From Escherichia phage AV108, in the sequence record OR352938.1: a DNA stretch of 64,000 bases; one strand, written 5' to 3'. The notes beneath the pieces were generated by a model that was given only the letters and a program-made list of their open reading frames with translations, had not been told where the DNA came from and ran no database searches. Of the stretch, positions 4,002 to 61,018 are shown piece after piece (position 1 is the stretch's first letter; each line of letters begins with the position of its first letter). A program made the translations under genes and the position numbers.

Positions 4002-4688
4002 TTAGTCGGTGTAGCTGGAGTCAAGGTCACACGCGATCATATAAGATACGGTTTCACTTGCCAGCCATACAGCCTTACGGCGAGTGAAGCTCAGTTTGTA
4101 ATCGCCGAAGTCAGTAGCAACCAGTTTCATGTTATCTTTACGAATAAAGAAATGGAAGTCTGCGGTTCCGGTATATTCGCCCATATCAAGACAAAACATC
4201 TCATTAGGATTATTTTTGTCAATCTCTTCCCAACCTTTGATCATCAGACGACCATCAATCGGAAGAAATTCAAGGCGATCCACTTTAAGCTGATTGCTCA
4301 TTTTCATAAGCTGTTTCAGATCGTCGTTGCTCAGTTCGTAATCTACATCGCTTGCAGGTGGAGTAACTCGGCCTTTCGGTGATACGATAGCAGCAGCACT
4401 AGCACCTGGATAATTAATTTTCAGACGATCATTAGACACACGAATGTTACCAGTGCGGTCATCAACCGTAATATCTGCTTCATCGCCTACCAGATTCAGA
4501 ATACCCAAGAAAGAGTTAAGATCATAGATCCCAATTTCGTGTTCCAGTTCTTGATTCAGAGTCGCTTCACCATAGACAACGTTTGTCATGTTTTTGGTGA
4601 TCAGGACGTTTCCTTTTTTCAGGATGATACCTGGGTTAATAGCGGAAAAGTTTTTCAGGGTAGCAATGGTTTCTTTAGTCAGTTTCAT
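4002..4688 (-). CDS. 45: Sliding clamp gp45
   Basis: MKLTKETIATLKNF... matches T4 gp45 N-terminus and length (228 aa); ATG at 4688 with GGTGA RBS (track start 4691 is TTG). Confidence 0.85.
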   Translation of the reverse strand: MKLTKETIATLKNFSAINPGIILKKGNVLITKNMTNVVYGEATLNQELEHEIGIYDLNSFLGILNLVGDEADITVDDRTGNIRVSNDRLKINYPGASAAAIVSPKGRVTPPASDVDYELSNDDLKQLMKMSNQLKVDRLEFLPIDGRLMIKGWEEIDKNNPNEMFCLDMGEYTGTADFHFFIRKDNMKLVATDFGDYKLSFTRRKAVWLASETVSYMIACDLDSSYTD

Positions 4689-4718
4689 CAAATCACCTTT
4701 ATCATGTTAATCAATTAA

Positions 4719-17039: not shown

Positions 17040-17068
17040 GTTGTCCTCTCGTTGTTTTCGATGTGAGC

Positions 17069-17096
17069 ATTATACATTAGCTAATCATGTTGTCAA
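17069..17096 (-). promoter_or_regulatory. sigma70-type early promoter (TTGACA-N16-TATAAT)
   Basis: Minus-strand TTGACA aacatgattagctaatg TATAAT then leader CATCGAAAACAACGAGAGGA before ATG. Confidence 0.5.
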
Positions 17097-17139
17097 CACC
17101 CCAAAACGAAAAAGCCGACCCTTTCGGATCGGCTAAAAA

Positions 17140-19002
17140 TTACATGTGCTTAACGCGGTTTACCATCTCGGAGTGTTTCCCGTGGTTAAATGGACGCAGA
17201 TCAACAGATCCAAGATATCCACTAACGCGACGGATAACATTCATCTTTTCCAGATTGTCGTTGCCGCAATCAGGACAAACAAAACCAGACTCGGTCGCTC
17301 TCATTTCCTTATTAGACCCGCATACATGACATACATCAGAAGGAGTATTAACACCGAAGTAGTGCAATTTATCCATTGCATAGTCTACTACAGTTTCAAG
17401 ACCTTTCAGGTTGTTTTTCATGTCTGGGAACTCAACATAAGAGATCATGCCACCGGACGCCAGCCAGTGATAATCTTTCTCAAAGTCAATTTTCTCAAAC
17501 GGTGTAACCTTCCGGTCTACGTCAAGGTGGAATGAGTTGGTGTACCAGTCTTTATCGGTAGCACCCTTAACAATACCAAATTGCTCTCTGTCCAGTCGAT
17601 TAAATCGATAGCAAAGGCTCTCGGCTGGCGTACCGTAAAGACTAAACCCAAGTCCGGTTTCGTCCTTCCATTTTTCAGTATAATGACGCAAGATCTTAAG
17701 AATATGTTTACCGTATCGCTGCGCATCTTCCGAATCAAACGGATGAACATCAAACAGGACGCTCAATACCTCATGTAAACCAATATATCCAAGAGAGATA
17801 CTAGCGCGACCATCTTTCAACACTTCCAAAATTTCATCGTTTTGATGAATACGGAAAAATGCACCTTCGGTATATAGTACAGGAGCAACATTGGCTTTAG
17901 CGCCTTTTAAAGCGTCTACGCGACTCATGAGCGCATCAAAACAAATAGGCATACGATTAGCTAGCTCTTGTTCGAATAGCTCAATTCTGCGCATTACAGA
18001 CGCTTTACCAGCACGACGCGCGGCAATAAGAGCAATACGCGGAAGATTCAGAGTCACAACACCCAAGTTATTACGTCCGTCTAATACTTCTTCGCCTTTC
18101 TCATTATGCCATACACCCAGGAAGCTACGACAACCCATCGGGCTAACCGGAACACTAGATCCAGTGATGCTACGGTTATTCTTCGCAGAGATATAATCAG
18201 GGTAAAGACGCTTACTAGAACATTCCAATGCAAGTTGCTTAATGTCGTAGTTCGGATCTTCCGGTTTAAGGTTTAATCCTTCTTCTAAGAACATCACCAG
18301 CTTAGGAAACACCGGAGTTATACCGTCTTTACCTAAACCTTTAGTTCGAACTTTCAGGATCGCTTTCTGAATCAGTTTTTCTTCCCAGCTAGTACCCATA
18401 CCAAAGGTTAAAGTCACAAAAGGCGTTTGACCGTTGGTGGAGAACAAAGTGTTGATTTCATATTCCAACGCTTGATACCCGTCTAGCGTTTCTTTTTCTG
18501 TCTTCTCTTGTGCATAGAGAGTATCAGCTTTGATTCCGTAGGTTTCGGCATCAGCAAGGTGTTTATGATATGTTTTCTCAACGTATGGCGCTAAAACCTG
18601 ATCGATGTTTGCAATTGTGGTCCCGCCATATTGATGACTTGCCACCTGTGCGATAATTTGAGCGGTTACAGCACAAGCAACGCCGATCGATTTCGGACTT
18701 TCGATTTGTGCGCTACCCAATTTAAAACCATTCTCTAACATGTCTTTGAGATTAACAAGACAGCAGTTAGTAAACGGCATAGCGGGTGCATAATCCATAT
18801 CATGATAATGAATATCACCGTCTACATGCGCTTTATAGATGTGCTCAGGTAACACGGTTTTAGCAATCTGTTTAGACACAGCGCCAGCAATCAGATCTCG
18901 ACGTGTCGGGAATGTTCGCGCGTCTTTGTTCGCGTTCTCTTTACTTACTTCGTTTTCTTTACCCGTTGCGATCTCTGTAATGTCTTTGATTAGTTTTTCC
19001 AT
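17140..19002 (-). CDS. nrdD: Anaerobic ribonucleoside-triphosphate reductase NrdD (glycyl radical enzyme)
   Basis: 620 aa; C-terminal zinc ribbon CHVCGS...CPDCG and glycyl radical motif RRVSGYLG; uninterrupted (no intron). Confidence 0.9.
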   Translation of the reverse strand: MEKLIKDITEIATGKENEVSKENANKDARTFPTRRDLIAGAVSKQIAKTVLPEHIYKAHVDGDIHYHDMDYAPAMPFTNCCLVNLKDMLENGFKLGSAQIESPKSIGVACAVTAQIIAQVASHQYGGTTIANIDQVLAPYVEKTYHKHLADAETYGIKADTLYAQEKTEKETLDGYQALEYEINTLFSTNGQTPFVTLTFGMGTSWEEKLIQKAILKVRTKGLGKDGITPVFPKLVMFLEEGLNLKPEDPNYDIKQLALECSSKRLYPDYISAKNNRSITGSSVPVSPMGCRSFLGVWHNEKGEEVLDGRNNLGVVTLNLPRIALIAARRAGKASVMRRIELFEQELANRMPICFDALMSRVDALKGAKANVAPVLYTEGAFFRIHQNDEILEVLKDGRASISLGYIGLHEVLSVLFDVHPFDSEDAQRYGKHILKILRHYTEKWKDETGLGFSLYGTPAESLCYRFNRLDREQFGIVKGATDKDWYTNSFHLDVDRKVTPFEKIDFEKDYHWLASGGMISYVEFPDMKNNLKGLETVVDYAMDKLHYFGVNTPSDVCHVCGSNKEMRATESGFVCPDCGNDNLEKMNVIRRVSGYLGSVDLRPFNHGKHSEMVNRVKHM

Positions 19003-19014
19003 TGTATCACCTAT

Positions 19015-19037
19015 GAAAAAGCGGGATTTTCTCCCGC
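19015..19037 (-). terminator. Hairpin plus U-run immediately upstream of the nrdD RBS
   Basis: Minus-strand GCGGGAGAAAATCCCGC followed by TTTTT, then AGGTGA RBS and nrdD ATG. Confidence 0.45.
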
Positions 19038-19048
19038 TCGTTGATAGT

Positions 19049-19543
19049 TTATTTTACCAGTTCTGCTAATTCTTTTTCTTTAGCTTCTAGTTCAGCTTTA
19101 AGCTGTTTAATCTCTTGTCGCTTCTTATTAGCGGCTTCTTGCTTACTATTTCGGATAACCTGATCTAGATACAACTCCCAATCCTGAATATTTTTGATAA
19201 TGTATCCGTCAACATTAATTGGTCGGAGATTCAGTACAGCTTCCAGTTTAGTCGCAAAAACTTTAATTGCTGGTGTGAAGTATTCATATTCGTTATCTTC
19301 AAACCAATAACCTAGACTTGCATTATCAATACGAAGACGAAGTTCAAGATCAAGGTCTTTATCTTCGGTGTAAAGATCTTTCACCTGACCCAGCGAACTA
19401 ACAACAACTTTAAAACGAATTTTATCTACACCACCAAACACATCAGTAAGTATATCAGCAATTGAGCTATTAGCGCAAGATTGGTCGCTGAATGCGTCAA
19501 GGTTTTCTTTAGTTACAGTATACCAAACATCTTGTACCCACAT
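19049..19543 (-). CDS. Paralog family protein (member E)
   Basis: IRFKVVVSSLG...YWFEDNEYEYF core plus C-terminal coiled coil. Confidence 0.5.
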   Translation of the reverse strand: MWVQDVWYTVTKENLDAFSDQSCANSSIADILTDVFGGVDKIRFKVVVSSLGQVKDLYTEDKDLDLELRLRIDNASLGYWFEDNEYEYFTPAIKVFATKLEAVLNLRPINVDGYIIKNIQDWELYLDQVIRNSKQEAANKKRQEIKQLKAELEAKEKELAELVK

Positions 19544-19573
19544 AATATAATCCTCTCGTTGTTAAGTGGGAGT

Positions 19574-19601
19574 ATTATAGCATACTCCCTTCGCATGTCA
19601 A
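19574..19601 (-). promoter_or_regulatory. sigma70-type early promoter with palindrome around -10
   Basis: TTGACA tgcgaagggagtatgc TATAAT; GGGAGTAT/ATACTCCC inverted repeat flanks the -10. Confidence 0.5.
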
Positions 19602-20776
19602 GCACTAACTTTTTTCTTTACTGCTTTCACCTTCTGGCGAATTGCTCGAATCTCTTCGATCTCTTTTTCAGTATCTTTAACAATTTCTTTGCGATTCTGA
19701 ATATCTTTATCGAGATTATCATCAAGTTTAGGCAGCATGTCAATCAAGAACTTTTTAAGGTCTTTCAGGTTGCGAATAACAGTACCTTCACCCATTACCG
19801 CCACGCCTACACCATCCGGCAGATCACCAAACAGTTTAACCAGTTCAGACAGATGATCATGATCTTCTAGTGCTTCTTCCGGTTCAGATGGCAGTTCAAC
19901 AAAGTAATAACGTTCATCATTGCTGATCAGGTGATACCAGCAAAGCCCAAAAGATTTAGGAGTATATTCTACACCACCAACTTCAACTGCGTCAACACTT
20001 CCGAAAGAATCTACTTTAGTTACCTTAAATCCATGTTCCAGCGTTTTAATAATTTCAATAACATGACTGGATACGGTTTCAGTATTAAACCAATGAGGCA
20101 AATTATGTGGATTTGGCTTGTATCGTTCGCCTACTTTAAATCTCTGACCACGCTCTTGCATACGGACATATTCAACTCGCGTGATTTCCGCGAAGTATTC
20201 AAATTCGCTACCGTCAAACAAGCAATTCCATTGATCACAAAAACGATCCGCCTTGACGGTTTCACCTTTCGCGGTGATCATGGTAGCTGATCCGTGCAAT
20301 TCTTCTTCAACTAAAAAGCCATATTCGACAAAATCAACAAGTTTCATGGCTTCTTTGTGCTCTGGGTCATGCTCTCCCCAGAATCGCTTAAATTCTTGCA
20401 AACCTTCTGGGGTAAACGAATAACATTTACCTTTTTCAAAGTAAGTCGGCATTGCATCCTCTTTCTTGTTCATCGCTTCGTATGCCTCTTTTGAGATACG
20501 TTTAAAGTATTTGCGCTCATTGTGCATAATCATAGTAGACCAATAATAAACGATATCCTCAGCGGAATAAACTACATCTCCAGCTTCAATAGTAATAACA
20601 TGACCGTGGTCATCTTTTTCTAATACTTTAAAGCCCTTTTCTACGATTTCAGCAACCCGAATATGACCACGGCGCGAAGCATCGGTCAGAATAATTGAAT
20701 AGCGAGAAAAGTCTAGAAACTCATCTTTACCGCCTTCACGGAATGCATAGTAATGACCTTCAAAGAATTTAGCCAT
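19598..20776 (-). CDS. Paralog family protein (member F, three tandem core repeats, 392 aa)
   Basis: Three copies of GF(K/L)V...ER.YF core (GFKVLEKDD.., GFLVEEEL.., GFKVTKVD..) plus C-terminal coiled coil. Confidence 0.55.
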   Translation of the reverse strand: MAKFFEGHYYAFREGGKDEFLDFSRYSIILTDASRRGHIRVAEIVEKGFKVLEKDDHGHVITIEAGDVVYSAEDIVYYWSTMIMHNERKYFKRISKEAYEAMNKKEDAMPTYFEKGKCYSFTPEGLQEFKRFWGEHDPEHKEAMKLVDFVEYGFLVEEELHGSATMITAKGETVKADRFCDQWNCLFDGSEFEYFAEITRVEYVRMQERGQRFKVGERYKPNPHNLPHWFNTETVSSHVIEIIKTLEHGFKVTKVDSFGSVDAVEVGGVEYTPKSFGLCWYHLISNDERYYFVELPSEPEEALEDHDHLSELVKLFGDLPDGVGVAVMGEGTVIRNLKDLKKFLIDMLPKLDDNLDKDIQNRKEIVKDTEKEIEEIRAIRQKVKAVKKKVSA

Positions 20777-22538: not shown

Positions 22539-23351
22539 TCAATCTACGTTAGTTACATAAACTTCTTGCGTATCAGAAGACTTGCCACCTGAACGATCTA
22601 GGCAATAGGTCTTATTCAACAGGACGCAGTTTAGATCATTCCGCTTGATAAAGTCAAGAAGATGATCATTTACCTTTCCCTTATGATGCGTGACATTACT
22701 GATACCAAACTGAAAACCACGCGCCATAATAGATTCTACCCACTGATAGAATTTAATCTCTTCCTCGTCACTCCAGAACTTATTATATTCCGCAGAAGTG
22801 ATAAGATACGGCGGGTCCAAATAAACGAAATCACCTGGCAAGATCTCGATCTCGTCATATCGTCCAGAAGTAAAAATGATTCGACCGTCTTTGTTTTCTT
22901 CCTTAAAATTCAGGACACGCTCTACCGCGTTTTCGTTAAAAGTCCGGCGACCAAAATTAGCATTAAATTCTCCCTTTCGGTTATGGCGGTTAATGTTGCT
23001 AAAACTGTGCTGAATCAACACAAACAGCGATAGCGGATCTGGATTCTCGTTATACTTCTTACGAAATGTCATGTAAGCGTCTTTATCTTCGCGAGACAAA
23101 TCATTTTCGGCAATAATCCGCTTGATCGTAGAAACCGGATCAGGACACTCGTCAATCGCTTTGTACGCGTCAATTAAGCGGTGATCATAGTCATTAGCCA
23201 GCACATCCCCTTCGACGTACAGAGACACGCTCAAGCCTCCACAAAAGGCATCAACAAAGCGGTTATAGTGCTTAGGGAAATACTTACTAACACCTGGCAA
23301 TAGCTTTTCCTTATTGCCAGTATAGGGAATTAAACCTAATGCTTTCTTCAT
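22539..23351 (-). CDS. dam: DNA adenine methyltransferase (Dam-like, alpha class)
   Basis: YTGNKEKLLP...RFVDAFCGGLSVSL (motif I) and FVYLDPPYLITSAEYNKFWSDEEE (motif IV) colinear with T4 Dam. Confidence 0.85.
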   Translation of the reverse strand: MKKALGLIPYTGNKEKLLPGVSKYFPKHYNRFVDAFCGGLSVSLYVEGDVLANDYDHRLIDAYKAIDECPDPVSTIKRIIAENDLSREDKDAYMTFRKKYNENPDPLSLFVLIQHSFSNINRHNRKGEFNANFGRRTFNENAVERVLNFKEENKDGRIIFTSGRYDEIEILPGDFVYLDPPYLITSAEYNKFWSDEEEIKFYQWVESIMARGFQFGISNVTHHKGKVNDHLLDFIKRNDLNCVLLNKTYCLDRSGGKSSDTQEVYVTNVD

Positions 23352-24943: not shown

Positions 24944-24972
24944 ATTATATGATAACCGCATTTTCATGTCAA
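24944..24972 (-). promoter_or_regulatory. sigma70-type early promoter (TTGACA-N17-TATAAT)
   Basis: TTGACA tgaaaatgcggttatca TATAAT. Confidence 0.5.
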
Positions 24973-27694: not shown

Positions 27695-27722
27695 ATTATA
27701 GCATTGTGATTATCTTTGTCAA
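27695..27722 (-). promoter_or_regulatory. sigma70-type early promoter (TTGACA-N16-TATAAT)
   Basis: TTGACA aagataatcacaatgc TATAAT. Confidence 0.5.
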
Positions 27723-57400: not shown

Positions 57401-57573
57401 AATTGTTCCACGGACTTAAAGCAAGCGAACGAAGATTTGCAATGAGTCCACTGTTTGACCAGTCGGCGGTAACATTCTCTATGTTCCGTGAACTTGTAGA
57501 TAAACGGTTGAAGGATAATATAGGGAGTCCACGCGATCCGAAGAATCCGACACAGAGGAAAATTAATGGCTAA
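54487..57573 (+). CDS. 7: Baseplate wedge initiator gp7
   Basis: 1028 aa (T4 1032); ATGA coupling to gp6. Confidence 0.75.
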   Translation: MIKAPSVTSLTIEKLSANQAYITWDDVGENFFYFVELAETRTRDGEIIPVDELSWVNLGYTADQNWFEDKNLFPEYYYKFRVAVAAEGFEQSKWIETEEFQTFKTNAYNFSMMREFNLANEFVKQKFTYDNRDYIKFNTDLIQASLMQEDFVFSPEYANITNISNKIIVDENFHEIQDHIEKVCTDINRTMLAEMNGVLYLFERFQPIVKVSNDKGQSWKAYKAFNDRVGNPVSRTCVYQSKTTTYVLGYDRIFYGRQASDTRWSADDVRFSDDTITFAKVGDENDLGFDVEVFGVFSRLTGDTTKYAEAMACSDDYLWVGAKDVIRRIRLKNTPVDTVQGSPTFGEKIFDPDVIRVTGNDKAVIQKMDVIDGKLLVFVTGEVKQRYQDPTKPENVVPSDDAGVYLIGSDGLSFQRVFGNTPQEREYIQHGFSNMSTNGDEVFISHYNHHFESILPDPETAAKYELGEAVKYSQEPTYLTDKKIHQTTFRASYDDLRIWELGPQAYYNEADYTWMRRNGVRVWITNDNRPLVVYPEVVYTQEVDTSGILDKNRINREVYDKGTVTCYLNNVKFEGFKQYASGVMFHKNTGEIIGFYQFNYRVRDQVGVYWKPTNVAFVAELQNQVREVPWVPVHYDREQDPDLRPLLNKMTPDSFLLENENFRKFSEYYLQFLSDGSGTYYNKLKNLIKNKYPREQDAYEYLWSEMNKRNIYADKNKRDAVVRFFESRKSDFYSTKGVEASYKFLFKLLYNEDVEIEVESQAGLEYDIVVSSTNIDEDIVGRTIYTPTGRANVTYLEREYEGGRLRWRVTIHNLIGRFEEGQVIKSEKTAFEGMILVGVRGKELLSSSIDYINRSRSQYTMKIKSALPVSRYANDVMRFVHPVGFGFIGVTLLTMFINSGLSMKHTETIIQSLKNYKFDSGLPSVYPDRVADLDVDGNIKKDPLTGKPLYLTSPTMGEEFPVPPEYDQENSELFHGLKASERRFAMSPLFDQSAVTFSMFRELVDKRLKDNIGSPRDPKNPTQRKING

Positions 57574-58561
57574 TGAAAATAGTGTGATCTATCGCTCAAT
57601 CATTACTAGTAAATTCAGAACGGAAAAACTTCTGAATTTCTATAATTCTGTAGGCGATGAGGCAAATCAAATTACAATTTATGGAACGTTTGGACGTTCG
57701 GAGCCGTGGTCAGAAAACGAAAAAGAGGTGGGCTTTGCCCCACCTTATCCGACCGATTCAACAGCTGGTGTTGTTGACATGTGGACCCATATGATGGGGG
57801 CGGTTAAGATTAACAAATCACTTCTTGATGCGGTTATCCCTCGTAAAGATTGGGGTGATACCGGACAGGATAACCCGCGCACATTCTTTATCAATGACAT
57901 TGTTGTTGTCAACTCAGCACCATATAACCGAACTGATGTTGGTAGCGGCTGGATGGTGTATCGCGTAACCGATGTTCCTGATCGCGGTTACTGCTCGATT
58001 TCAAGCATTGACGCTAAAGTAGAGTGTTTGAAGTTGGGCGGAAAGTGGACACCCACTCATGAATCAATTGCGCCACCTGTAGGAAAGGGCGATTCTATTG
58101 ATATGGGTGATGGGTATCGTTGGGAATATCTGTACACAATTCCACCTGATGCGGCGATCAACCGTTGCACCAATGAACATATTGTTGTACCGTTCCCCGA
58201 TGAACTGCGACAAGATCCGGCGCGTTGGGGCTATGACAATGCGATCACATGGTATAATGACTATAATCTTCTTTATCGGCTGAAAGTAGTAACTTTGCGT
58301 TTTCAGGCTTATATGGACTCTGCGCAATTCCCAACTACCGCGTTAGTGGGTAATACTGGTTTCCGTCAGTTAAGCATTATCCTTAACCCATTGGAAAAGA
58401 AAGCACGCCCTAGCGATCCAGACGTTAAAGCGGTCAAAGATAAGTACCGACCGCAAGACTTAGAGCCACACTCAGGCGAAATGATCTACATGGAAAACCG
58501 ACAACCTATCGTTCGGTCATTAGATCAAACAGAACTTGTTTCTGTATTGTTTGAGTTCTAA
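57566..58561 (+). CDS. 8: Baseplate wedge protein gp8
   Basis: 331 aa (T4 334); position after gp7. Confidence 0.7.
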   Translation: MANENSVIYRSIITSKFRTEKLLNFYNSVGDEANQITIYGTFGRSEPWSENEKEVGFAPPYPTDSTAGVVDMWTHMMGAVKINKSLLDAVIPRKDWGDTGQDNPRTFFINDIVVVNSAPYNRTDVGSGWMVYRVTDVPDRGYCSISSIDAKVECLKLGGKWTPTHESIAPPVGKGDSIDMGDGYRWEYLYTIPPDAAINRCTNEHIVVPFPDELRQDPARWGYDNAITWYNDYNLLYRLKVVTLRFQAYMDSAQFPTTALVGNTGFRQLSIILNPLEKKARPSDPDVKAVKDKYRPQDLEPHSGEMIYMENRQPIVRSLDQTELVSVLFEF

Positions 58562-58577
58562 GTGTATGATTTTAAAA

Positions 58578-58602
58578 GCCAATTCGAGAGAGTTGGCTTT
58601 TT
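58578..58602 (+). terminator. Rho-independent terminator after gp8
   Basis: GCCAAttcgagagagTTGGC followed by TTTTT. Confidence 0.6.
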
Positions 58603-58614
58603 CTATTTTGAGTG

Positions 58615-58642
58615 TTGACAATCTTATTTGGTAAGGTATAAT
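58615..58642 (+). promoter_or_regulatory. sigma70-type promoter (TTGACA-N16-TATAAT) inside late baseplate cluster
   Basis: gTTGACAatcttatttggtaaggTATAATacac followed by GGAGGATAAATT-ATG. Confidence 0.6.
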
Positions 58643-58671
58643 ACACACATCTAAACAACGGAGGATAAATT

Positions 58672-58929
58672 ATGGCACGTCGTAAATTTACAGATAATTG
58701 TGAAGCAATTCAGGTATCCCCTTGCGGTTGGGATGTGATCGCGAACGGTGAAAAGATCGGAGAGATCATCGATCATACTCATTCATCATTAGCCGATTAC
58801 ACCGATGAACTGTGGGAGGGTATCAACTTCATGAATGACACTAAACGATTCAAGACTATCGACGAAGCTATCTATTTTGTGTATAATCCAACTTTCGGTA
58901 TGTGGGGAACTAGAAAATGGCACGCGTAA
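58672..58929 (+). CDS. Hypothetical protein (85 aa), first gene of inserted cassette
   Basis: Strong GGAGGA RBS. Confidence 0.5.
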   Translation: MARRKFTDNCEAIQVSPCGWDVIANGEKIGEIIDHTHSSLADYTDELWEGINFMNDTKRFKTIDEAIYFVYNPTFGMWGTRKWHA

Positions 58930-59249
58930 ATATTAAATTGCATTACACAATGAATAAAGCTAAGTTCCCAATGCAAAAGCATTACTATGGTCTACGTGCA
59001 CAAGATCCTAAACTCTATGGTACTCATTGGTTTTGTAAACATGATAACCAATGGCACACATACGAAGAAATGCACGAGATGATGAAACAGGGTATTGAAT
59101 TTAGTTATTCTAATTATGACCATCGTATAACTTGCATTCGAAAATTGAAACGATGGATTCGTAAGAATCCGCAATTTAAAAACTTTGTGTTCTTTATGTC
59201 TCATGTTTATTTGGGACATAGCGTTACCGTCACAGCAAAGGTTAAATAA
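58917..59249 (+). CDS. Hypothetical Cys/His-rich protein (110 aa)
   Basis: Overlapping stop/start coupling; HWFCKHDNQWH...C pattern. Confidence 0.5.
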   Translation: MARVNIKLHYTMNKAKFPMQKHYYGLRAQDPKLYGTHWFCKHDNQWHTYEEMHEMMKQGIEFSYSNYDHRITCIRKLKRWIRKNPQFKNFVFFMSHVYLGHSVTVTAKVK

Positions 59250-60088
59250 TGGCACGACTTTCTAAACAAGAACAAAAATTACACGATCGGGTGATGGAGT
59301 TGATTAATTCAGATCGCCCATTGACATATGAAGAAAAAGAATTTTGCTATAATAACTATCATGGCGATGGTCTAGGCGGTTCAGGTGCATTCTTTACCCC
59401 AGAAGGGCTTGCATGGGATTTTACCATCGATGCACATTGCACAGGAAAAGTATTAGATCTTTGTGCTGGGATCGGTCGCTTATCTTTTTGTATGTTACAT
59501 CGTTGTAAGCCAGAAAAGATCGTATGCGTCGAACTCAATCCAGAATTTGCGCGTATTGGCAAGCGACTATTACCGGAGGCAGAATGGATCACCAGCGATG
59601 TATTCGAATTTGAGTCAAACGAAAAATTCGATGTTGTAATTAGCAATCCACCTTTCGGGAAAATCAACACAACCAACACAAAGGATGTATTTGAATATAC
59701 TGGCGGTGAGTTTGAATTTAAGGTTATGACATTAGGCCAGAAGTTTGCCGATGTAGGTTATTTTATTGTTCCTTCTGGTTCCGCTGGTTTTGCTTATTCC
59801 GGCAGACCTTATTATGACGGGACCATGAAGTCCAATAAATATCTAAAATGGAGCAAACAAACTGGTTTGGTGACTTATGCCGGATGTGGGATCGATACAT
59901 CAATCTATCGCGATGAATGGCACAGTACCAACGTTTTAACAGAAGTGGTTGAGGTTCGGTATTACGAGAAAGAAGCCGTAGAAGCGCCTAAATCACGCCC
60001 TAACGAACAAATAGAAGAAAGTAAGGAGATTACCTTACCGAAACAGGAAAGCGAGTCTGGGACGCTCTCAGATTTGTTTGACATTTAA
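59249..60088 (+). CDS. N6-adenine DNA methyltransferase (gamma-class amino-MTase)
   Basis: Motif order FFTP (X) - VLDLCAGIGRLS (I) - VISNPPFGK (IV) typical of gamma-class N6A MTases. Confidence 0.7.
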   Translation: MARLSKQEQKLHDRVMELINSDRPLTYEEKEFCYNNYHGDGLGGSGAFFTPEGLAWDFTIDAHCTGKVLDLCAGIGRLSFCMLHRCKPEKIVCVELNPEFARIGKRLLPEAEWITSDVFEFESNEKFDVVISNPPFGKINTTNTKDVFEYTGGEFEFKVMTLGQKFADVGYFIVPSGSAGFAYSGRPYYDGTMKSNKYLKWSKQTGLVTYAGCGIDTSIYRDEWHSTNVLTEVVEVRYYEKEAVEAPKSRPNEQIEESKEITLPKQESESGTLSDLFDI

Positions 60089-60093
60089 TTATA

Positions 60094-60119
60094 AGCCGTC
60101 CTCGTGGGCGGCTTTTTTG
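60094..60119 (+). terminator. Rho-independent terminator after methyltransferase cassette
   Basis: AGCCGTCCtcgtGGGCGGCT followed by TTTTTT. Confidence 0.6.
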
Positions 60120-60128
60120 TATGTATTT

Positions 60129-60136
60129 TATAAATA
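60129..60136 (+). promoter_or_regulatory. T4-type late promoter TATAAATA upstream of gene 9
   Basis: Exact TATAAATA ~28 nt upstream of gp9 ATG, GAGGAA RBS. Confidence 0.55.
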
Positions 60137-60163: not shown

Positions 60164-61018
60164 ATGGCACAAGTTCCAAAGAAAAGAATAGACACAGGTA
60201 CTGTCGGCAATCCATCGACTGGCGATATCTTATATGATGGCGGTAATAAAATTAACGATAACTTTGATTCAATATATGACGCATTTGCTGATCAGCGGTT
60301 TAAAGACGTAGACCACGGCGTGGGAAGAATGGTTATTCATGCAACCGGATACTATCAGAAGCATCCACGTCAAAGCTACGCTGGTTCCGCTGTTGAGATT
60401 GGGAGTCTACACGATATCGATACAACTCAAGGCGCACTTATTGCTATTCTACCTAAAGCAAAGGTCGGTGAGGGTGTTGTATTCATAAATAGTAACGGTA
60501 GCCTTTCAACGACGACACCGCTCAATATTCGAACTCAAGCAGGTGATTCTATTAGCGGTTATTCCGGTGATGCTACAATAACACAACCATTTTCAAAAGT
60601 CACTGTTTGGTGTACTGCCGTTGAAGGTAGTCGCGTAACATGGCGATTGGGTATCGAAAGTATGTTTACCGATACAACAACGCCATTAGATAAAACAGTT
60701 AACGTAACTGGAGTAGCAACAAACGTTGCTATTGCCGCAAAAACAGAATACGTTTCCATCAAATTATTAACTACCGCTAGCAATACATCCGGTTCAAAAA
60801 TGCGTTCAAGTGAAACGCTACTGATGATTGATTCTAAAGCCGGAAAAGTTTATGCGACGGAATATGCAGTTTTGCAGAAGACAGAAGATGAACTATACAC
60901 GGTTCATTATTTCATCGGTTCCGGCGATAAAGTATATGCAGAGTATAAGGCTACTGGCGAAAATATTCGTTTAGCAGTTAAAGCCGTAGACACTATTAAA
61001 ATCGGGGTTGCTACATGA
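60164..61018 (+). CDS. 9: Baseplate wedge/long-tail-fiber connector gp9
   Basis: PKKRIDTGTVGNPSTGDILYDGGNKINDNFDSIYDAF...IHATGYYQKH...FINSNGS colinear with T4 gp9. Confidence 0.85.
   Translation: MAQVPKKRIDTGTVGNPSTGDILYDGGNKINDNFDSIYDAFADQRFKDVDHGVGRMVIHATGYYQKHPRQSYAGSAVEIGSLHDIDTTQGALIAILPKAKVGEGVVFINSNGSLSTTTPLNIRTQAGDSISGYSGDATITQPFSKVTVWCTAVEGSRVTWRLGIESMFTDTTTPLDKTVNVTGVATNVAIAAKTEYVSIKLLTTASNTSGSKMRSSETLLMIDSKAGKVYATEYAVLQKTEDELYTVHYFIGSGDKVYAEYKATGENIRLAVKAVDTIKIGVAT

Follow-up and report, generated by a model that had tools for sequence, protein, structure and literature searches.

We analysed a stretch of 64,000 nucleotides from Escherichia phage AV108 (record OR352938.1), hereafter the window, and looked in particular at a 1.5-kb unit that lies between the late baseplate genes 8 and 9 and encodes a putative DNA methyltransferase. 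The extreme C-terminus of this enzyme closely resembles that of the phage DNA polymerase gp43 and is predicted, from its sequence, to be a binding motif for the gp45 sliding clamp. Taken as a whole, the features described below point to a long-resident early unit whose orphan DNA methyltransferase would be tethered to gp45, with methylation coupled to replication, a reading that we consider rather probable. The clamp tail was absent from an earlier, sequence-only reading of the unit, and no published account of it was found in the literature searched.

The methyltransferase reads ...KQESESGTLSDLFDI at its C-terminus and thus ends in GTLSDLFDI, while the polymerase gp43 of phage JSE reads ...YEKVASLTDLFDI and ends in ASLTDLFDI. 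We scored in two ways the C-termini of the 954 JSE open reading frames (ORFs) of at least 40 amino acids. In a BLOSUM scan, gp43 obtained 39 and the methyltransferase 32, the next best ORF reaching 19. With a profile built from 71 distinct polymerase tails of the T4 family, the scores were 18.7 bits for gp43, 15.8 for the methyltransferase and 8.8 for the next ORF, over a background of -13.8 ± 6.6. The methyltransferase ranked second by both scoring schemes, and in JSE only gp43 and this enzyme carry the tail; Dam and a third annotated methyltransferase of the same phage have no such C-terminus. The polymerase of Providencia phage PSTCR6 ends exactly in LSDLFDI. In the JSE DNA ligase, the segment aligned to the verified gp45-binding loop of the T4 ligase reads GTLSWIFEE; a second ligase segment, GLDDLFAV, was dropped as a candidate clamp motif, being unaligned to that loop. 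At the nucleotide level, the tail codons of the methyltransferase and of gp43 match at 20 of 27 positions. Because the codons differ synonymously and the DNA downstream is unrelated, the identity appears to be kept at the peptide level, and the idea that the tail arose by recent copying of the gene 43 3' terminus was rejected.

The way the tail is carried is also informative. Identity to the homologue P0002 is 74% in the core, 33% in the linker and 88% in the tail, a pattern typical of a tethered short linear motif. In an AlphaFold2 (AF2) model, the linker (residues 241-272) has a predicted local distance difference test (pLDDT) score of about 44 and is followed by a short helix at residues 273-276. 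Known ligands of the gp45 clamp in T4 and RB69 are a DNA-ligase loop and the C-termini of gp43, gp33 and gp55; these C-terminal tails are hydrophobic and acidic, can replace one another and are each preceded by a variable, flexible linker (PMC2988020, PMC6212786). Methyltransferases from T4-like phages extend further, through an added segment that is acidic or rich in Pro and Glu, to a C-terminus that is hydrophobic and conserved, whereas prophage homologues end at about residue 238, with neither linker nor tail.

Could the protein rather be an ordinary orphan anti-restriction DNA methyltransferase that diffuses freely, its C-terminal extension serving another use (stability, another partner) or none, and its likeness to the polymerase being inconsequential? 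Several observations speak for this and weigh against tethering. The family functions without the tail in prophages and in the phages GAP32, AS-sw and phiM12, whose versions have no linker either, and both T4 Dam and the Krischvirus Dam do without it. The extension of the Vibrio version is different, and phage JA29 has the enzyme fused to another domain. The RB43-type tails, NLFTFTIE or ELFTFRIE, misfit the polymerase-tail profile; they are conserved across several genera, in RB43 itself NLFTFTIE stands behind an EPEP linker, and the known clamp binders gp55 and T4 ligase loop misfit the profile as well. In the ERZ27260015 lineage, the only further one in which a methyltransferase and a polymerase could be paired (by sample), the methyltransferase ends in SLSMFDI and the polymerase in SLSDLFDF, which are of the same class and not identical. 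A free-diffusing enzyme is nevertheless hard to reconcile with a tail that shares 7 of its 8 residues with that of the polymerase, has no equal among the 954 ORFs once gp43 is set aside, and is better conserved than both core and linker. The synonymous codon differences imply that selection maintains the tail peptide, and in T4 tails of this kind suffice for gp45 binding and can be swapped for one another. We therefore regard free diffusion as unlikely. Strict co-variation of methyltransferase and polymerase tails across genera, which we also looked for, was borne out in part only: the two tails are almost identical in Krischvirus, alike in ERZ27260015 and only loosely matched in RB43.

To place the enzyme itself, we searched it against profile and structure collections. 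It belongs to PHROG 3820 and carries, in the order X-I-IV, the motifs FFTP (residues 48-51), VLDLCAGIGRLS (residues 68-79, with LDLCAGIG at 70-77) and NPPFG (residues 133-137). This is the linear order of the gamma class, and all three motifs, already pointed out in the sequence-only reading, are invariant in the alignment of 27 family sequences. Three Pfam models scored above their cut-offs, namely MTS (top), Methyltransf_25 and Eco57I, the last (PF07669) with 29.3 against a cut-off of 25.3 and as a partial match over residues 117-197. The best curated profile was the DNA-methyltransferase model mad2 of PADLOC (E 4.7e-17, versus about 1e-9 for the PrmC and MTS models); mad2 and several Type II methyltransferase models begin at the FFTP motif. 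The top NCBIfam matches, PrmC, RsmC and PrmB, stayed five- to ten-fold under their cut-offs and covered only the Rossmann core, from residue 59-64 onwards. For the PrmC equivalog TIGR03534, the score was 37.4 bits versus a cut-off of 199.1, over residues 64-137 only, and a PrmC/HemK identity was rejected on this score. The AF2 model (pLDDT 83.6 overall) shows a single compact domain at residues 1-240, mostly above 90, for which the Foldseek matches of low root-mean-square deviation were the catalytic domains of M.TaqI and CamA.

Other results of these searches weigh against a DNA methyltransferase of the usual gamma type. N6_Mtase (PF02384) scored 17.5, below its cut-off of 20.4; a profile search of the PDB returned only generic Rossmann-core matches near E 1e-3, and the closest PDB sequences include putative RNA methyltransferases. 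The AF2 model has no separate C-terminal target-recognition domain, M.TaqI aligning over its catalytic domain only, and no curated family model places the methyltransferase firmly. The gamma-class label proposed earlier fits the motif order. Profile searching, by which an RNA or protein enzyme was to be told from a DNA enzyme, gave a divided answer: mad2 leads and PrmC falls far short, yet the generic MTS model passes and N6_Mtase does not.

By tblastn, the family was detected in 289 phage records. Its carriers are Krischvirus, T4-like phages of Enterobacteria of the RB43, KP15, KP27 and GAP161 type, T4-like phages of Aeromonas and Vibrio, Sinorhizobium phage phiM12 and the jumbo phages GAP32 and fHe-Yen9-04; the studies of KP15 and KP27 overlooked it. 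Outside the clade, the nearest relatives (54-61% identical) are encoded in enterobacterial chromosomes, as the last gene at one end of prophages of various types, and no endonuclease was found near them. The RB43 homologue (L011, 18258-18992) lies inside the replication module, in the order primase 61, 61.1, methyltransferase, helicase 41, uvsX and 43. In the Dickeya jumbo phage JA29 (L016, 1501-2670), a family member belongs to a run of genes labelled as methyltransferases and is fused to a C-terminal segment that resembles, by eye, the S-adenosylmethionine-binding part of a beta-class N4/N6 DNA methyltransferase. In the window, no cognate endonuclease or specificity gene adjoins the methyltransferase, its neighbours being gp8, gp9 and two small ORFs.

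Because the mad2 and Type II models, the invariant motif order, the Eco57I match, the structural matches to M.TaqI and CamA and the contexts in RB43 and JA29 all point in the same direction, we hold with good confidence that the protein is an orphan DNA amino-methyltransferase with gamma-class motif order, and its motifs suggest that it most probably acts on N6 of adenine in DNA. An enzyme that methylates RNA (m2G or m6A of ribosomal RNA, like RsmC or METTL5) or a protein glutamine (PrmC/HemK) was weighed against this assignment. Such an identity would agree with MTS as the top Pfam match, with PrmC, RsmC and PrmB as the top NCBIfam matches, with PH1948 and RsmC as the best PDB sequence matches, and with the absence of detectable modified DNA in Krischvirus TB34 (PMC13390438). 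Moreover, records such as those of kaaroe, ECD7, kvi and E26 annotate the gene as a release-factor glutamine methyltransferase, and prmC is the label in MN850574, KY683735, MN850615, MN655998 and MT478991. The NCBIfam matches, however, are far under their cut-offs (37 versus 199 bits for PrmC) and reflect a generic Rossmann core only, whereas the DNA-methyltransferase models score better and include FFTP. A polymerase-type clamp tail is sensible only for an enzyme working on duplex DNA, and homologues stand among the RB43 replication genes and among JA29 genes annotated as DNA methyltransferases. An RNA or protein substrate is thus improbable in our view, and the prmC label on Krischvirus records looks like a propagated annotation error.

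A different role for the tail was also considered, in which it would make the protein chiefly a clamp competitor or regulator that controls the access of the polymerase, the ligase or gp33/gp55 and acts in this way on replication or late transcription, methylation being secondary. The few partner sites of gp45, the interchangeability of the tails and the position of the unit inside a late operon reliant on gp45-activated transcription would fit such a role. The invariance of the catalytic motifs across the family nevertheless indicates selection for enzyme activity, catalysis is the ancestral function as judged from the relatives without a tail, and nothing points to a regulatory role, so that we give this possibility very little weight.

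If the methyltransferase is tethered to gp45, the unit could work as follows. Host sigma70 RNA polymerase would initiate early at the promoter at 58615-58642 and the transcript would end at the hairpin at 60093-60114, whereas late transcripts of genes 6-8 would stop at the hairpin at 58574-58601. The downstream hairpin would also block read-through to gene 9, which would restart from the late promoter TATAAATA. The methyltransferase would be made alongside the replication proteins. In the Krischvirus lineage, the enzyme would have gained some 33 residues of acidic linker, predicted to be disordered, followed by eight residues that copy the clamp tail of the polymerase, and this tail would dock it on gp45 clamps at the forks or on those left behind on new DNA. 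Nascent phage DNA would then be methylated during its synthesis, which could keep fast-replicating DNA safe from restriction. We infer in this scheme the early timing, the DNA substrate, the target site, gp45 binding and the protective role. Clamp-coupled methylation could help against restriction because Krischvirus genomes are without known genes for hydroxymethylcytosine synthesis and glucosylation. More tentatively, and as a serious possibility rather than a probable one, this would be the first clamp-tethered, replication-coupled DNA methylation in viruses or prokaryotes, convergent with DNMT1-PCNA and perhaps evolved so that T4-like phages without the known hydroxymethylcytosine and glucosylation genes mark nascent DNA quickly enough to evade restriction. 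On this reading, methylation might also shield phage DNA from nucleases that the phages themselves have kept, such as DenA/EndoII (PMC8056088).

The chemistry of Krischvirus DNA weighs against this scheme. High-performance liquid chromatography and mass spectrometry of TB34, which carries the unit, found no detectable modified DNA (PMC13390438); the text of that study mentions neither adenine nor deoxyadenosine. Heavy adenine methylation in TB34 looks unlikely, and methylation in Krischvirus, if any, is probably sparse. No Krischvirus methylome was found in the literature searched. According to the same study, the Krischvirus isolates SAP and TB34, which are 99.96% identical, differ in that SAP has glucosylated hydroxymethyl-type cytosines and TB34 none, a difference for which the known pathway genes give no explanation (PMC13390438).

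The anatomy of the unit and the other features of the window are collected in Table 1.

Table 1. Position of the unit, of its borders and of other features discussed here (coordinates are those of the window).
Feature	Position	Strand	Remarks
Gene 8, baseplate wedge subunit, late; upstream border	57566-58561	+	Pfam PF09215 Phage-Gp8, E 4.6e-144
Terminator-like hairpin 1 and T-run	58574-58611 (hairpin 58574-58601)	+	12-bp stem, 4-nt loop; -15.8 kcal/mol, z -4.5
sigma70 (phage early) promoter, TTGACA-N16-TATAAT	58615-58642	+	12/12 consensus positions; conserved in L020 and L022
Other five perfect promoters, TTGACA-N15-18-TATAAT	1970-1998, 17069-17096, 19574-19601, 24944-24972, 27695-27722	- (all)	
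ORF1, 85 aa, phrog_16603	58672-58929	+	First gene of the apparently mobile ORF1-ORF2 pair
ORF2, 110 aa, His-rich, phrog_12630	58917-59249	+	Two allele classes in Krischvirus
Methyltransferase ORF, 279 aa	59249-60088	+	NPPF type
Methyltransferase catalytic body, residues 1-238	59249-59962	+	N-terminal helices and class-I Rossmann fold with motifs X, I, IV
Acidic linker, predicted disordered, residues 239-271	59963-60061	+	9 Glu among 33 residues; pLDDT ~44
C-terminal tail TLSDLFDI and stop codon	60062-60088	+	Predicted gp45-binding motif; near-identical to gp43 tail SLTDLFDI
Terminator-like hairpin 2 and T-run	60093-60120 (hairpin 60093-60114)	+	9-bp stem, 6 GC pairs; -15.9 kcal/mol, z -4.0; kept in L020 and L022
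T4-type late promoter core TATAAATA, serving gene 9	60129-60136	+	Kept at the corresponding position in both L020 and L022
Gene 9, baseplate wedge tail-fibre connector; downstream border	60164-61018	+	Pfam T4_gp9_10_N, E 1.4e-40
Gene 45, sliding clamp	4002-4691	-	ORF nearly identical to annotated JSE gp45; proposed dock for the methyltransferase tail
dam, D12-class N6-adenine DNA methyltransferase	22539-23351	-	Pfam PF02086, E 1.6e-30; second methyltransferase in the window, without clamp tail

All the elements that the sequence-only reading had listed (hairpin, perfect sigma70 promoter, three ORFs, second hairpin, TATAAATA and gp9) were found where it had placed them. Its description of ORF2 as Cys/His-rich is right for histidine (9 residues) and wrong for cysteine (2 only). 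ORF2 and the methyltransferase gene each start overlapping or abutting the preceding ORF. Six perfect sigma70 promoters were observed in the window, versus 0.08 expected by chance; the five outside the unit share their strand with nearly all genes upstream of the baseplate cluster. Hairpin 1 has equivalents in the relatives L020 and L022, and the record of phage GEC-3S annotates it as a terminator, together with the second terminator and the promoter of the unit. The late promoter core TATAAATA is unenriched in the window (4 found, 6.6 expected), and it is credible as the late promoter of gene 9 because of its position and its conservation in diverged relatives rather than by enrichment. Together, the hairpins, the promoter and the layout in relatives support a self-contained early unit, probably insulated by terminators, inside the late baseplate operon, as had been proposed.

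To see how old the insertion is, we compared the gp8-gp9 junction among T4-like phages. As anticipated, it is interrupted relative to T4: the unit is absent from the junction of T4, Aeromonas phage Aes012 and RB16, where the gaps measure 63, 9 and 10 nucleotides, respectively. The unit is present at the site in at least 57 Krischvirus records and also in metagenomic relatives whose gp8 is 88%/81%, gp9 77%/56% and methyltransferase 64% identical. These relatives share the layout, that is, a hairpin with a T-run, TTGACA-N17-TATAAT or GATACT, a coding region, a hairpin with a T-run, TATAAATA and gp9, and the intergenic sequence around the shared regulatory elements has drifted. Nothing foreign was seen in the base composition of the unit, and foreign composition as a mark of recent transfer was ruled out. 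The view of the unit as an acquired cassette therefore holds relative to the genera of T4, Aes012 and RB16, and does not hold in the sense of a fresh acquisition; conservation at this position, which had been named as evidence against acquisition if found in all relatives, is seen within the Krischvirus clade and not in those three phages. On these comparisons, the insertion is old and stable in the Krischvirus clade and is a composite of two independent pieces. It is not a single three-gene cassette, since the ORF1-ORF2 pair has a history separate from that of the methyltransferase.

Homologues of ORF1 and ORF2, 58-70% identical, lie adjacent and with the same short overlap in unrelated, rV5-like (Vequintavirus) coliphages such as HMD-6 and FV3, where the ORF1 homologues (69-70% identical) stand next to the ORF2 homologue; in HMD-6 the pair occupies L026 2756-3330, for 58672-59249 in the window. 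No methyltransferase follows the pair in the rV5-like phages. Conversely, the promoter directly precedes the methyltransferase in L020 and L021, with no small ORF between them, and a single unrelated ORF of 154 amino acids takes this place in L022. No counterparts of ORF1 or ORF2 were found beside the methyltransferase in RB43 or in the prophages, and neither ORF had a Pfam, NCBIfam or PADLOC match. Within Krischvirus, a genus otherwise 96-99% identical, ORF2 falls into two allele classes: it is at least 95% identical in 38 records and about 72% identical in 24. Most of the divergence falls in residues 13-57, and the C-terminal half hardly varies. This split could reflect diversifying selection or allele replacement. 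The AF2 model of ORF2 is of low confidence (pLDDT 62, from an alignment of only four sequences). ORF1-ORF2 looks like a small two-gene unit moving between phage families. Because the pair occurs without the methyltransferase in rV5-like phages and is absent or replaced where the methyltransferase is kept, the two ORFs are, as far as gene neighbourhoods tell, independent passengers and not partners of the enzyme. The suggestion that they might be its specificity or regulatory partners was accordingly rejected.

By the nucleotide matches of its gp8-to-gp9 stretch, the window belongs to Krischvirus (the RB49/Phi1/JSE group). This stretch matched 65 phage records; the match spans 80% or more of it in 57 of them, identity being mostly 95-99%, and the closest matches are all Krischvirus (RB49, Phi1, JSE, GEC-3S, ECD7, kaaroe and others). 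Pfam identified gp7, gp8, gp9 and gp10 around the unit; gp44, gp45, gp55 and dam lie elsewhere in the window. The second adenine methylase that the sequence-only reading had noticed, Dam, is confirmed by its D12-class match. JSE has a third ORF labelled as a DNA methyltransferase (223 amino acids; record 120467-121138), outside the window; it has no Pfam match at E <=0.001 and no clamp tail. Gene 43 of JSE is annotated as two coding sequences (403 and 468 amino acids) about 530 bp apart (record 17062-20204), and the window begins within this locus. In L027, a metagenomic relative, the polymerase is also split, its halves being separated by a small ORF. Promoter-early stem-loop elements (PeSLs) flank gene 43 on both sides (Arbiol et al., PMC2839356).

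Orphan phage methyltransferases are usually regarded as free enzymes, and a clamp tail would give a concrete, easily testable route by which the DNA of a phage that replicates very fast is kept methylated. If the reading is true, the tool-belt of T4 gp45 would gain a new class of client, and maintenance methylation of eukaryotes would have a parallel in bacterial viruses. RB49-like phages are used in phage therapy, where determinants of restriction sensitivity matter. The analysis also corrects a recurrent database label, release-factor glutamine methyltransferase, and resolves an apparent three-gene cassette into what appear to be two independent pieces.

Finally, we compared the unit with known systems. 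The hairpin and promoter fit the published PeSL class, that is, the promoter-early stem-loop and ORFan cassettes of RB49 and Phi1 (Arbiol et al. 2010, PMC2839356; Comeau et al. 2014, PMC4122927), so that by its sequence features the transcriptional architecture is of a known kind. As in the RB49 and Phi1 elements, a near-perfect sigma70 promoter is accompanied by a stem-loop in the AT-rich upstream region and by a Shine-Dalgarno sequence, with an accessory ORF immediately downstream. The consensus early promoter, the adjacent stable stem-loop and the intergenic position directly 5' of the accessory ORF are all present, and the stem-loop lies upstream of the -35 box, as in one PeSL subclass. 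A few PeSLs sit within the virion module beside genes of unknown function (PMC2839356), and their stem-loops keep early transcription from spilling over into late virion genes (PMC2839356; PMC4122927). Unlike PeSLs, which differ between close relatives, this unit keeps one site throughout the genus and beyond it, only its small-ORF content varying: members of the clade have 0, 1 or 2 small ORFs behind the promoter. The two PeSL papers do not mention the methyltransferase.

The enzyme resembles mad2 of the MADS defence system (PADLOC PDLC04134) and gamma methyltransferases of the M.TaqI and Eco57I type in its motifs X to IV, and its catalytic domain superposes on that of M.TaqI; the alignment spans only some 105 residues, and the enzyme has no recognition domain, no defence neighbours and no endonuclease. 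Like T4 Dam and other phage orphan adenine methyltransferases, it is phage-encoded, lacks a cognate endonuclease and has a presumed anti-restriction role. T4 Dam, however, is of the D12 family (PF02086) and without a clamp tail, whereas the present enzyme is MTS/Eco57I/mad2-like. Its tail is built like the gp43, gp33 and gp55 tails and the ligase loop of the T4 family, with a short hydrophobic and acidic extreme C-terminus behind a flexible, poorly conserved linker. It differs from those gp45 partners in that the carrier is a methyltransferase and that gp45 binding is here predicted from sequence. No report of a methyltransferase as a gp45 partner, nor of a clamp-bound phage or bacterial methyltransferase, was found in the literature searched, and a review of sliding clamps lists only DNMT1-PCNA as a clamp-bound methyltransferase (PMC9690074). 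DNMT1 is a C5-cytosine enzyme that uses a different motif, in a different position, on a different clamp, and the phage case would be convergent. As in the PIP-box maintenance methylation by DNMT1 and PCNA that this review cites, a clamp-binding peptide would recruit a DNA methyltransferase to new DNA.

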